IMG/VR virus record: IMGVR_UViG_2690316267_000010
DNA length: 18,636 nucleotides
Source: a virus
Lineage: Duplodnaviria > Heunggongvirae > Uroviricota > Caudoviricetes
Strand: one strand, 5' to 3'
The notes beneath the pieces are model-generated. The model was given only the letters and a program-made list of their open reading frames with translations. It was not told the DNA's origin and made no database searches. This document shows positions 7,959 to 12,237 of the stretch, piece after piece (the stretch's first letter is position 1; every line of letters begins with the position of its first letter). The position numbers and the translations under genes are program-made.

Positions 7959-8966
7959 TCACCCCCTGAATCCTTCCGGGATCTGGCTGTAGTCCACGTT
8001 GTCGTAACTGGCTTTGAAGTACGGGTCCTCGCGTCTGGCTGCAGATACCGCAGGAACTTCCCAGGATTCTTCGAAATGACGATCCGGACCAAAGAACGTC
8101 GACGCCTGCTTCACGAACTGGGTACCGGTATTTCCAGAGACACGCACCCAGGCGGCATAGCGTTTCACACCGTCGAGCATGGTTTCGGGTGTCACACCTT
8201 CCCTGATTCGGGCTTTCCAGGCTTTAAAAGCGGCGGATTTTGAATTACCACCAGCACGTTTGGGATATTCCTGCCAGGCCTGTTCAAATTCCGGTGAATA
8301 TTCCTGTCTGGCAGAACGCGCTGGTGCAGACGCGTCAGCGGATGCGCCAATAGTGTTTTTAGTCTCCGTTGTAATCTCTGTAGTAATCTCTGTAGTAATC
8401 TCTGTAGTAATCTCTGTATTTGTATCAACATTCGGCGTATCCCCTGTTCCGTTATGACGTCGGGGGGTGTTCCGTTTTAACGTAATAGCTGTATCGCTGA
8501 TTGCATTATTGCTGTTACTTTCTGGCGAAACAGAAGAAGGTGTGGTGATGGCCGCAATTGCCTGTGGGTTGATCCCGACAAACAAAATATTGCTGCATTT
8601 CACCCCATCGAGCATTTCCACCGTGCGTAAATCCAGAGTAATAAACCCTGCATCGCGCAGACGCTTCAGCGCATCTGCGGTTTCCCTTTTCCCGAAACCA
8701 AACTGCTCAGCAAACGCCTGGTAGCTTCTTTGCAGTTTGTCGCCCTGAAAACGCTTGCGATATCCCAGCAACGCTCCGGTGTGCTCATCCCTGACCTCTG
8801 TCGGGCGGTACCAGTAAACGATCTCTGAAAGCAGAGCGATAGCCGTCGCATCCGGACGCCCACTGGGTAGTCGAATATATTTCCACCAGGTCGCAGGTGT
8901 AACATTGCCGGAAATATTAATTTGACCAATAGCCATAACTTCCGGTGTGGGGGCGTAACGGCTCAT
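7959..8966 (-). CDS. Putative replication-initiation protein (lambda O-like domain organisation)
   Basis: ATG with GGAAGGAGG RBS; N-terminal domain, central TEITTEITTEITTEITTE linker encoded by 12-bp DNA repeats, and a conserved-looking C-terminal domain (EFEQAWQEYPKRAGGNSKSAAFKAWKARIREGVTPETMLDGVKRYAAWV). Position in the operon matches a replication gene. Confidence 0.5.
   Translation of the reverse strand: MSRYAPTPEVMAIGQINISGNVTPATWWKYIRLPSGRPDATAIALLSEIVYWYRPTEVRDEHTGALLGYRKRFQGDKLQRSYQAFAEQFGFGKRETADALKRLRDAGFITLDLRTVEMLDGVKCSNILFVGINPQAIAAITTPSSVSPESNSNNAISDTAITLKRNTPRRHNGTGDTPNVDTNTEITTEITTEITTEITTETKNTIGASADASAPARSARQEYSPEFEQAWQEYPKRAGGNSKSAAFKAWKARIREGVTPETMLDGVKRYAAWVRVSGNTGTQFVKQASTFFGPDRHFEESWEVPAVSAARREDPYFKASYDNVDYSQIPEGFRG
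8371..8418. repeat. Four perfect tandem copies of a 12-bp unit (GTAATCTCTGTA); candidate origin iterons inside the O-like gene
   Basis: Directly visible at 8371-8382, 8383-8394, 8395-8406, 8407-8418, with a degenerate copy upstream (TCTCCGTT). Confidence 0.6.
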
Positions 8967-9262
8967 ACAACCTCCTTCCGCAGCATGAGAATTGTGTAGC
9001 CACGCGCAGGTTGTAGTCTGGCTTTTGCATCAATAGTAAGCGTTGCAATTTTTCGGATATGAAGATAACCAGCTCTTTCCAGTGCCAGGGTTTCCCTGAA
9101 TATCGCTTGCTTAGAACAACAGCAGAAATCAGCAAGCACCTGATGATCAATAACTCTCTCGCCTTCACCGTCTGAAGAACCCGACATCAAAACACGCAAC
9201 ATAATCAGGCGCTGAATCGGGTTATCGAAAGCACATCCGCACACAAACTGAAAACAGTTCAC
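8963..9262 (-). CDS. Hypothetical protein (99 aa), possible winged-helix DNA-binding
   Basis: GTG start with GGGAGGTG RBS; GTGA overlap with the upstream gene; HTH-like segment QVLADFCCCSKQAIFRETLALERAGYLHIRK. Confidence 0.45.
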   Translation of the reverse strand: MNCFQFVCGCAFDNPIQRLIMLRVLMSGSSDGEGERVIDHQVLADFCCCSKQAIFRETLALERAGYLHIRKIATLTIDAKARLQPARGYTILMLRKEVV

Positions 9263-9483
9263 GCCACACCTCCCAGACGCTTAAACATTTTTCCGGAGCA
9301 AAAGGCTATAAGCGGCATACTGACGCGGTAATTACGGCCCAGCGGTTCACAAACCACCTTCTGACATTCACGGTCAACCAGGCTAACACGTAGAACATGC
9401 CCAGCAGGCGTGGTGTACCACTGACCCGGACGAGGACAACGGAAAGTATGATTGGTAAACCGTTTGAAAATATTCCGGATCAT
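9259..9483 (-). CDS. Hypothetical protein (74 aa)
   Basis: ATG overlapping the stop of the upstream Rha-domain gene (ATGA); sits inside a tightly coupled operon. Confidence 0.45.
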   Translation of the reverse strand: MIRNIFKRFTNHTFRCPRPGQWYTTPAGHVLRVSLVDRECQKVVCEPLGRNYRVSMPLIAFCSGKMFKRLGGVA

Positions 9484-10640
9484 TTGCGCCCCCTTACCTC
9501 TGAAGGGTTCAGCGACAAATTTATGAGACTGGCCAGCGCCGAAGCATCATTAATATAGTCATATAAGCTAACAGCCAGCGGAGATTCGGCTTTTGCCAAC
9601 ATAGGATAAAGCTGCTGCAGCCAGACCTGATGAATTGATGAAATGTAGGAACAGAGAACGCTGGCGTTATGTGCAACGTCGCTCGGTACAGCGGGCTTTG
9701 AAAGCTGTTTCTCCATCTGGTTAAAGGCATTTATGTATGCCTCTTTGAACCGGGCAGCACGTTTACCCGTGAAACCCATAGCAAGAAACGCAAAACCGTC
9801 TCGTGTGATTTGATAGCAAGGGAGCTTGCGTGTACCACCGTTCGGTTGATTTACCGAAATCGATGTCTCCGCAAAATTGCGGGCACAAAACTCTGGGGAA
9901 CAATCCAGAGTGCGGATCTTTTTCAGCACATCGTCGTGACGCTTGGAGAAGAAGTTGGCAACAGCCAAAGAAGTGGTAACGGCCTGGCCGTTGTCAATGG
10001 TGATTTCAGGTTGAGTGAGGGCTGGGATCGTAGCCATGATGGCAGCCTCCGTTGACAGTGAAAAACTTCCACCACCGGAAACGCCAATTTCACTGGTGGT
10101 GAACTGGACGGGGTTGGCGTAACCGGCGTCAACGGAGACCGGCGCACCTTTCGGTGCCCCCGCCCAGCCCACCATAATCTGGATGTGAGCAAATGCGGAC
10201 GATAAAAAAGACGCTGGCGCGTCATACATCGCCGTTGACAATTTCAGGACGCCAATCCCGGCACCCGCTTTATAAGGTGCCTGAGCAGTGTAACGTCCCG
10301 GAATTGCAGAATCAATATGCTGGTGGTCCTTCACACTCAACAAAATCACGCCTGAATTTCCACAAAGGACTAAAGCACTCATGCGGGTAGTCTTTGCGAA
10401 GATAGATAACGCGCTGTGTTTCTGGCTCCCAACGAATAACATGGACATAAAGCCCTCTTCCGTCACGAAACCAGCGGTTAAGTTCCTGCACAACTCGCCC
10501 CCCACAGTCAGGTAAAGTTCTCTGTGGTTACTTACAGCCAGGTGATTTGGTAATCTGCATTCATGCCGTAACAACAGGTGTTCAGCGACGCTGACCACCA
10601 GCTGTTGCGACAAACGGTTATTTGCCGTTAAACTATTCAT
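9480..10640 (-). CDS. Rha-family phage regulatory domain protein with a long unrecognised N-terminal region
   Basis: 386-codon stop-free frame; ATG overlaps the YdaT-like stop (ATGA). Residues ~220-320 (VTTSLAVANFFSKRHDDVLKKIRTLD...CYQITRDGFAFLAMGFTGKRAARFKEAYINAFNQME) match the Rha domain; the first ~215 aa were not recognised. Confidence 0.55.
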   Translation of the reverse strand: MNSLTANNRLSQQLVVSVAEHLLLRHECRLPNHLAVSNHRELYLTVGGELCRNLTAGFVTEEGFMSMLFVGSQKHSALSIFAKTTRMSALVLCGNSGVILLSVKDHQHIDSAIPGRYTAQAPYKAGAGIGVLKLSTAMYDAPASFLSSAFAHIQIMVGWAGAPKGAPVSVDAGYANPVQFTTSEIGVSGGGSFSLSTEAAIMATIPALTQPEITIDNGQAVTTSLAVANFFSKRHDDVLKKIRTLDCSPEFCARNFAETSISVNQPNGGTRKLPCYQITRDGFAFLAMGFTGKRAARFKEAYINAFNQMEKQLSKPAVPSDVAHNASVLCSYISSIHQVWLQQLYPMLAKAESPLAVSLYDYINDASALASLINLSLNPSEVRGRK

Positions 10641-11544: not shown

Positions 11545-12237
11545 ATGAACATAGGAAACCGAGTCAGACAACTTCGCCAGGCGAAGAACATGAAAATCGC
11601 CGATCTCGCTGAAGCAATAGGAGTGGATGCGGCGAATATCTCACGCCTGGAAACAGGTAAGCAGAAACAATTCACTGAACAAGCCCTGAGTAATATTGCC
11701 AGGAGCTTAGGTGTTGATATTGCTGATCTCTTTACCTCAGACGTCAAAAGTAATACTGTATGTAAAAACAGTATTAGTGAGGATGTTGCGCAGGTGAAGG
11801 ATGTATTCCGTATTGAAATGCTGGATGTCAGTGCCAGTGCGGGAAATGGCCTTATCCAGGGCGGTGATGTCATTGATGTGATTCATGCCATTGAATACAG
11901 AACTGATAATGCTGTATCGATGTTTGGCGGACGGCCAGCCAATCACATTAAAGTTATCAACGTTCGTGGGGACAGTATGTGTCCAACCATTGAGCCAGGA
12001 GATCTCATCTTCGTTGATGTCAGTATCAATCAGTTTGATGGAGATGGTATCTATGTATTTGGTTTTGATGATAAAATTTATGTCAAACGACTGCAAATGA
12101 TACCTGACAAACTACTGGTGATTTCTGATAACCAGATTTACCGTGAATGGGGAATTACCAGCGAAAATGAACACCGGTTTATGGTCTTTGGAAAGGTCTT
12201 AATCAGCCAGTCACAAACCCTTAAGCGACACAATTAA
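11545..12237 (+). CDS. CI-type prophage repressor (N-terminal HTH + C-terminal LexA/S24 peptidase-like domain)
   Basis: 230 aa; N-terminal XRE HTH (KIADLAEAIGVDAANISRLETGK); C-terminal S24-like region with GDSM (Ser) and downstream KR (FVDVS...YVKRL). Confidence 0.85.
   Translation: MNIGNRVRQLRQAKNMKIADLAEAIGVDAANISRLETGKQKQFTEQALSNIARSLGVDIADLFTSDVKSNTVCKNSISEDVAQVKDVFRIEMLDVSASAGNGLIQGGDVIDVIHAIEYRTDNAVSMFGGRPANHIKVINVRGDSMCPTIEPGDLIFVDVSINQFDGDGIYVFGFDDKIYVKRLQMIPDKLLVISDNQIYREWGITSENEHRFMVFGKVLISQSQTLKRHN

Follow-up and report, generated by a model that had tools for sequence, protein, structure and literature searches.

In phage P1, the ribosome-binding site (RBS) ahead of the antirepressor, which is that of icd, a gene translationally coupled to ant, is covered by a pair of target sequences called a2b2. 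As Citron and Schuster reportedly found in 1990, c4 of this phage is an antisense RNA with two loops and with target pairs both upstream (a1b1) and downstream (a2b2). In Gifsy-1, an open reading frame (ORF) of 45 codons, orf45, begins with the AUG found at the 5' end of a C4-like RNA and ends with an ATGA overlap on anrP (Hershko-Shalev et al. 2016, PMC4825925, as read against the sequence). Proteins combining an Ash with a Rha part have previously been described (PMC8951638; PMC10111431), Ash in the Rha/Ash proteins of Shiga toxin (Stx) phages being called of function unknown (PMC8951638). The locus considered here lies in an 18,636-nucleotide (nt) stretch of DNA from a virus of the class Caudoviricetes (IMG/VR record IMGVR_UViG_2690316267_000010), the whole of which is referred to as the window, and corresponds to a stop-free frame of 386 codons (9480..10640, minus strand, stop included), i.e., 386 amino acids (aa), which RefSeq presents as one Rha-family protein. 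Compared with these systems, the long ORF is with good confidence a composite of (i) a YmfM-type ORF, (ii) an embedded DUF4222 gene, (iii) an RNA immunity cassette, and (iv) a Rha antirepressor initiated at the ATG of codon 202 (ATG-202), the whole corresponding to a switch of the P4 CI, P1 C4 and Gifsy-1 IsrK type. As such, it is ordinary in kind and over-merged in annotation.

An earlier note on this DNA, made from the letters alone, had reported that the part of the frame preceding the Rha domain matched nothing and might represent a novel domain fusion. On the contrary, residues 117-212 (10005..10292, on the minus strand as are all elements within the long frame given below) match the Pfam family Phage_ASH (PF10554; E 3.7e-21, 76 bits for a cut-off of 26) and the same DNA matches two Rfam families above their gathering scores (GA), the Ash span covering a -10 box, an IsrK-like RNA, a C4 RNA, their targets and the first 11 codons of the Rha protein. 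The cassette, which occupies codons ~103-201, begins with a putative sigma-70-type promoter (10287..10315) made of a -35 hexamer TTGATT (10315-10310), a 17-nt spacer and a -10 hexamer TACACT (10292-10287). In a generic promoter scan this candidate fell below threshold (8/12 matches) and the call rests on positional conservation with respect to Gifsy-1 and relatives, i.e., the spacing between the hexamers and the RNA 5' end equals that of TTGACA-17/18-TATATT in the Gifsy-1 promoter PisrK, and diverged relatives keep promoter-like hexamers at that position though the sequence changes. Next comes a small RNA (sRNA) of the IsrK/P4 seqA type (10204..10280; Rfam RF01394, 62.2 bits, GA 50), which ends at an intrinsic terminator (10223-10204) identified both from the Rfam alignment and by an independent terminator scan. 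The upstream target thus belongs to a same-strand, terminator-ended RNA recognised by the isrK model, the c4-a1b1 model reaching only 22.5 bits, below its own gathering score. The two 5' hairpins of this sRNA co-vary (RNAalifold on a MAFFT alignment), and the terminator was not recovered from that alignment as differences in loop length misalign it. It is followed by an antisense RNA of the C4/P4 CI type (10092..10179; Rfam RF01695, 81.4 bits, GA 45, model positions 1-87 of 87), for which the alignment of 64 sequences (MAFFT and RNAalifold) gave the long closing stem and the two internal hairpins characteristic of such RNAs, with almost none of the 27 pairs broken and 10 of them exhibiting compensatory double changes. 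Codons 121-183 of the long frame hence correspond to two structured RNAs with covariation and an internal terminator.

The pairing potential of the antisense RNA is intact. The C4 a' loop (10137-10128, CTCCGTTGAC) pairs at 10 of 10 positions with the a2 target (10056-10047, GTCAACGGAG), which overlaps the Shine-Dalgarno (SD) sequence GGAGG (10050-10046) of ATG-202, the rha start lying at 10037, so that the RBS is covered; a further copy of 8 nt, a1 (10239-10232, GTCAACGG), lies inside the sRNA. Likewise, b' (ACGCCAA, 10120-10114) pairs at 7 of 7 positions with two copies of TTGGCGT, namely b1 (10255-10249), inside the sRNA, and b2 (10087-10081), the latter forming together with a2 a seqC-like downstream target region (10041..10087). 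Throughout the window, the a motif occurs at these three places only. Among 100 unique relatives, a' loops vary from one type to another, each type's own a1 and a2 matching its loop at fixed positions, with a mean own pairing of 7.6/8.2 nt against 4.8/4.2 nt in cross pairing; in other words, loop and targets change together between immunity types. Such cassettes can also be encountered in arrays with different specificities. On one viral contig (L153:9712-11106), three of them follow each other at 656 nt, each C4 having another a' loop, and proteins P0141 and P0147 are tandem Ash(-Rha) ORFs.

Downstream of the cassette, the Rha domain lies very much where the earlier note had placed it, i.e., around residues 220-320, with Pfam PF09669 matching residues 222-311 (9708-9977; E 8e-28) and TIGR02681 residues 213-315, both beyond their curated cut-offs (97-99 bits for 29.9 and 91-93 bits for 45.95, respectively), and is followed by a conserved C-terminal region (residues 312-386). 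Based on these family matches, on the ratio of non-synonymous to synonymous differences (pN/pS) and on the starts of homologues, the Rha antirepressor proper can be delimited as the 185 aa encoded from ATG-202 (9480..10037). That translation might start at an internal methionine was the outcome considered in the note as contrary to a fusion, and the data largely point that way, M202 being preceded by a strong SD and matching the first residue of many diverged Rha proteins, nine of which aligned in this way when 1.84 billion representative proteins were searched. Standalone Ash-Rha ORFs of 274-301 aa start at about residue 100-108. An additional ATG at the 5' end of C4 (10175-10173, codon 156) corresponds by homology to the start of Gifsy-1 orf45, the leader peptides beginning with MVGWAGAPKGAPV in the window and MVGRMGEPKGSPV in Gifsy-1, and the orf45-homologous frame of the window is in frame with rha and contains no stop. 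The stop of the long frame shares ATGA with the ATG of the next gene, which encodes a 74-aa protein (MIRNIFKRF..., 9259-9483, minus strand) with no Pfam match. In some relatives (loci L048-L052), the first 7 codons of this 74-aa gene directly precede the IsrK promoter, which suggests the cassette borders are recombination hot spots.

At its other end, the long frame is coupled to the upstream gene exactly as the earlier note had read it, the ATG (10640-10638) being preceded by a GGAG SD and sharing ATGA with the TGA of a YmfL/CII-CP76-like gene. Residues 1-102 correspond to the gene found after ymfL in the e14 element of Escherichia coli K-12, i.e., ymfM (b1148), annotated as cell division inhibitor YmfM. 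The resemblance to e14 YmfM includes the location directly after ymfL, the ATGA coupling, the MNSLT start and a tail whose homology extends through an overlap with DUF4222, phrog_1170 (e14 YmfM) matching residues 47-98 (E 1.8e-10). Two portions can be discriminated, namely the conserved N-terminal part (codons 1-49, 10494..10640), recognised by its pN/pS, position and start, and the tail (codons 50-102, 10335..10493), which is read out of frame across DUF4222 and matches the e14 YmfM tail. The N-terminal ~50 residues nonetheless belong to a different sequence type, with only MNSLT in common with e14. Besides, while e14 YmfM stops 20 nt before the DUF4222 stop, the frame of the window continues for 284 more codons. 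The usual ymfM stop, located about 20 nt before the DUF4222 stop, is absent from the window at codon 103, a GTG falling exactly where this stop should lie, and ymfM runs into the Ash-Rha frame; in related cassettes, an ATG start occupies this very position (ATGAAGCGCCACCAGCATATTGAT in L138 for GTGAAGGACCACCAGCATATTGAT in the window). As for its meaning, the N-terminal ~50 residues are best regarded as a selected peptide and the tail as a segment kept open, otherwise dictated by DUF4222. Within the first 50 codons, some blocks (10560-10625) do not differ at any codon position between E. coli phages and ST64B and include a small inverted repeat, AACGG-N7-CCGTT, the sequence between the blocks being diverged and carrying a 6-nt indel; a nucleotide-level signal may be present there besides coding. 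In relatives devoid of the DUF4222-IsrK-C4-Rha block, 78-aa ORFs were observed (P0064, P0085), in which 45 YmfM-N-like residues continue in frame into the 28 C-terminal residues of the 386-aa ORF, so that this block behaves as an in-frame insertion/deletion cassette.

Codons 50-110 of the long ORF are overlapped by a complete DUF4222 gene (10312..10491) of 59 aa, exhibiting a GTG start and a G-rich SD, and lying in the -1 frame relative to the long ORF (Pfam PF13973, phrog_1343). The match to PF13973 (E 9.4e-14, 51.1 bits for a cut-off of 27) spans profile positions 4-51 of 53, that is its full length. When a DUF4222 alignment was used to scan a single genome of each species, 32 loci were retrieved, in Citrobacter, Enterobacter, Kluyvera, Kosakonia, Raoultella, Phytobacter and others. 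In every one of these loci, as well as in e14 and the window, the frame +1 to DUF4222 is open, starting at an ATG right after the upstream stop (MNSLT/MTSLT...) and remaining so until 20 nt before the DUF4222 stop (save for the window, where the usual stop is missing); the third frame closes within 5-11 nt in nearly all loci. For 18 diverged loci sharing one N-terminal type, which is not that of the window, pN/pS is 0.34 in the non-overlapping part of ymfM (pS 0.37), and in the overlap 0.18 for the DUF4222 frame (pS 0.66) and 1.57 for the ymfM frame, DUF4222 being the frame under purifying selection there. Across DUF4222, all 31 unique sequences keep the ymfM frame open, whereas ~5% would be expected to do so from synonymous recodings of each DUF4222 protein under E. 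coli codon usage. As such, ymfM and DUF4222 are regarded as a conserved overlapping pair. Just upstream of the GTG of the window, the SD of DUF4222 consists of a run of six G (10498..10503), and 19 database sequences on 44 contigs (P0036) have seven G instead, by which the YmfM N-terminus is fused in frame to DUF4222 (109 aa); the viral contig L106 is also shifted at the G run. These variants could reflect real slippage, phase variation or homopolymer sequencing errors.

This overlap bears on a phenotype of K-12. The e14 element contains a complete DUF4222 ORF (NC_000913.3 1204001-1204180; L007:3502-3681), equipped with an AGGAG SD and a TTG start, which is unannotated and lies in the -1 frame inside ymfM. 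Since the published ymfM expression clone comprises the whole ORF (Ansari et al., bioRxiv 10.1101/2020.11.19.390815), it carries most of DUF4222 and the SfiC filamentation phenotype is consequently not frame-resolved, its assignment to the ymfM DNA segment making no distinction between the two frames. If ymfM and DUF4222 are truly dual-coding, the SOS-inducible division inhibition known as SfiC could be due to DUF4222.

The distribution of coding signatures along the long frame follows the boundaries described above. Using pairwise Nei-Gojobori counts on 53 unique full-length ORFs from viral contigs, pN/pS was 0.33 for codons 1-49, 1.06 for codons 52-108, 1.13 for isrK, 0.83 for orf45/C4, 0.30 for the Rha domain and 0.26 for the C-terminal region. 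Protein-like behaviour is confined to the first ~50 codons and to the stretch beginning at codon 202. The G+C content at the first, second and third codon positions by segment, a comparison the note had proposed, was weakly informative, with flat values of 0.57/0.57/0.54 in the RNA span. Structure prediction by AlphaFold, from an alignment restricted to relatives of at least 85% identity, gave a predicted local distance difference test score (pLDDT) of 20-32 for residues 1-216 and of 57-78 for the Rha domain. In the Protein Data Bank (PDB), the sequence search gave no match below E = 0.4, and NCBIfam returned nothing for residues 1-116, the Ash span, DUF4222 or e14 YmfM. Ash therefore does not behave as a protein domain in the window, considering pN/pS values of 1.13 and 0.83 and a pLDDT of about 20-25, and yet the frame is open. 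Since the CI RNA lies within the P4 "cI" ORF, itself a member of Ash, and the Ash span of the window consists of RNA genes, Pfam Ash amounts to the conceptual translation of a seqA/IsrK-CI/C4-seqC cassette.

Prophages with 100% identical DNA occur in several E. coli chromosomes, where the RefSeq product WP_001087333.1 corresponds to exactly these 386 aa under the name of Rha family phage regulatory protein, homologues of 382-387 aa form more than 100 clusters, and a single long ORF is also annotated in phages cdtI (orf44), ST64B (Sb41) and mEp460 (gp41). In UPEC129 and phage 1720a-02, the locus was split by PGAP (Prokaryotic Genome Annotation Pipeline) into a 59-aa DUF4222 protein and a 287-300-aa Rha protein, so the gene model is contested even among annotators. 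On another reading, the openness of the frame is inherited by descent rather than selected, in which case the long frame would be an incidental annotation artefact and only the 185-aa Rha protein, DUF4222 and a short YmfM peptide would matter. The location of the best SD ahead of M202, itself a target of C4, and the occasional split by PGAP are in keeping with an artefact, and so are Gifsy-like relatives, which have stops in every frame across the same RNAs. When C4 elements were sampled by a DNA pattern blind to ORFs, two classes emerged, namely class A (31 unique sequences, Gifsy-like), with ~4 stops per 300 nt in the orf45 frame, and class B (55 unique sequences, 25 clusters, with several different downstream genes), where the orf45 frame is fused to the downstream gene. 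In class B, this frame shows no stop over 300 nt in 55 of 55 sequences, which differ strongly in the RNA region, for 3.5 and 4.8 stops in the other two frames; it lacks stops starting 52 codons or more ahead of the orf45 ATG, and the ORF starts at an ATG 52-57 codons upstream, just ahead of the -35 box, either ATGA-coupled or behind a GGAGG/AAGG SD. From the conjunction of zero stops and start signals, the Ash-X ORF appears to be maintained though its amino acids are unconstrained, and a description of Ash as a purely spurious translation, which had been envisaged, was accordingly softened. Considering further that the ymfM frame is open in all 31 unique sequences in spite of a saturated synonymous divergence, and that a ribosome starting at ATG-1 physically meets no stop, a mere artefact is unlikely, even when it is borne in mind that related sequences are non-independent samples.

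That residues 1-215 form a new folded domain fused to Rha in one 386-aa protein, which was the suggestion of the earlier note, is very improbable. It is true the frame is open, ATGA-coupled, annotated as one protein and avoids stops along its whole length, that codons 1-49 are under purifying selection, and that the glycine-rich stretch pointed out in the note is present (VSGGGSFSLSTEAA, residues about 187-200). However, the amino acids of codons 52-201 are unconstrained, a selected DUF4222 gene occupies codons 50-110 in another frame, codons 121-183 encode structured RNAs and a terminator, pLDDT is below 50 over residues 1-216, and in relatives this cassette follows unrelated upstream genes or forms a standalone ORF of ~280 aa. 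What stands of the proposal is a fusion of reading frames, of which codons 1-49 bear a coding signature (pN/pS 0.33); no novel protein domain is involved, codons 52-108 being DUF4222 out of frame and codons ~103-201 a promoter, RNA genes and targets, and most of the region upstream of Rha thus lacks the coding signatures expected of a protein. As for a programmed -1 frameshift at the G run, yielding a YmfM-N-DUF4222 fusion with the zero-frame product as by-product, a G GGG GGC heptamer exactly at the junction, selected segments in frames 0 and -1 (codons 1-49 and DUF4222, respectively) and the existence of 109-aa fusions speak for it, but it was judged extremely unlikely given that most diverged loci have no G run and possess an SD and an ATG for DUF4222 at the homologous position, that e14 uses AGGAG and TTG, and that the G7 variants may be homopolymer sequencing or assembly errors.

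With the long ORF seen as a YmfM-type ORF, a DUF4222 gene, an RNA switch and a Rha gene, a mechanism can be proposed on the model of P1, P4 and Gifsy-1. Two transcripts would arise from the internal promoter in the lysogen, namely a short IsrK-like sRNA ending at its own terminator and a read-through RNA, synthesis of the sRNA and of C4 presumably being constitutive. C4 would be processed from the read-through RNA, occlude the rha RBS and block initiation at ATG-202, leaving the antirepressor off, and possibly promote termination before the replication genes at 7959-9262, whereas the IsrK-like RNA may modulate C4 via the decoy copies a1 and b1; Rha itself would act as antirepressor on the LexA-like CI encoded at 11545-12237. 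Once the early operon (cro-ymfL-ymfM) is transcribed, ribosomes loaded at ATG-1 would meet no stop and translate through the terminator and the C4 region, and such read-through translation would suppress termination, override the antisense block and bring ribosomes to rha and the downstream replication genes. On transcripts made from this internal promoter, no translation would take place ahead of codon 156 or 202, so that they would still be subject to the RNA switch. Ribosome read-through of the terminator and C4 would explain a stop-free frame without amino-acid constraint, and the hypothesis put forward is that the frames are kept open for read-through from the early operon; the long frame would then probably be translated from early transcripts as a read-through leader rather than as a folded domain. 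Active maintenance of both stop-free overlaps, on the one hand through a translation-driven override of the RNA switch (a YmfM-leader-Rha polyprotein) and on the other hand through ymfM/DUF4222 dual coding across Enterobacteriaceae including K-12 e14, is possible though rather doubtful.

Several points weigh against this understanding of the locus. A pN/pS near 1 in the RNA genes is compatible with translation, because a constraint at the RNA level bears on every codon position. With 21 close sequences, the alignment behind the AlphaFold model was shallow, so that its low confidence counts for little. The counts on stop avoidance come from phylogenetically non-independent sequences, and the rationale of read-through is our own hypothesis. 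The transcription start, the efficiency of the terminator, the processing of C4 and all translation starts have been deduced by reading the DNA. Finally, the IsrK effect may not have the same direction as in Gifsy-1, IsrK activating there whereas seqA is a termination target in P4.

All components belong to described families, and CI/C4 RNAs embedded in Bro-network (Ash) genes have been noted before. As far as the literature was searched, three elements may be new, namely (i) the quantitative evidence for stop-free frames across RNA genes and DUF4222, (ii) the in-frame ymfM-Ash-Rha fusion in the lineage of the window, and (iii) ymfM/DUF4222 dual coding in e14. Hundreds of E. coli and Salmonella prophages contain the locus as one annotated gene, be it a "Rha family regulator," a "peptidase" or an "antirepressor." Considering the Ash span as an RNA switch changes the way the control of induction is to be studied, including in Stx-converting prophages, as well as the start codon to annotate and the reading of the Pfam Ash family. 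Elsewhere in the window, AgvB, an anti-GcvB sponge sRNA (1467-1528, plus strand; Rfam 96.5 bits), lies back to back with STnc100 (1529-1722, minus strand; 142.7 bits), and three transfer RNA genes are present (2496-2742, minus strand). The replication-protein ORF (7959-8966) contains 4.7 copies of a 12-nt repeat unit (8363-8418; TEITTEITTEITTE in the protein), an arrangement which resembles an origin with iterons embedded in an O-like gene.

Among the systems known, Gifsy-1 isrK-orf45-anrP, where isrK, the C4-like RNA and isrJ were located with the same Rfam models, exhibits the same order and spacing of a promoter, IsrK with its terminator, a C4-like RNA (STnc1160) with an overlapping leader ORF, and an antirepressor. 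It differs in that orf45 is separate and in another frame than anrP, whereas its homologue in the window is in frame with rha, and in that the region upstream of orf45 has stops, whereas the frame of the window is open through the sRNA and its promoter. Moreover, the effector is an ORF6N protein in Gifsy-1 (AnrP) and a Rha-domain protein in the window, where, unlike in Gifsy-1, the cassette sits within the early operon between ymfL/ymfM and the replication genes. In P4 seqA-CI-seqC, isrK (seqA) and C4 (CI) Rfam matches occur in the same order, the cassette also lies upstream of replication genes, and the CI RNA is located inside the historical "cI gene product" ORF, i.e., the Pfam Ash member; regulation there, however, proceeds by premature termination of the replication operon, the ORF is not fused to Rha, and seqA lies just upstream, outside the Ash ORF. 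The immI operon of P1/P7 (c4-icd-ant) shares with the window a two-loop antisense RNA, upstream and downstream target pairs and an antirepressor, but the RBS targeted is that of icd in P1 and that of rha itself in the window; a gene for a cell-division inhibitor is linked in both cases, namely icd in P1 and ymfM in the window. The Rha/Ash proteins of lambdoid and Stx phages (Eru6/7/9; PMC8951638), together with ST64B Sb41, cdtI orf44 and mEp460 gp41, present the same annotated architecture with 78-92% nucleotide identity, and while those reports treat Ash as a protein domain, the Ash span of the window corresponds to an RNA cassette.

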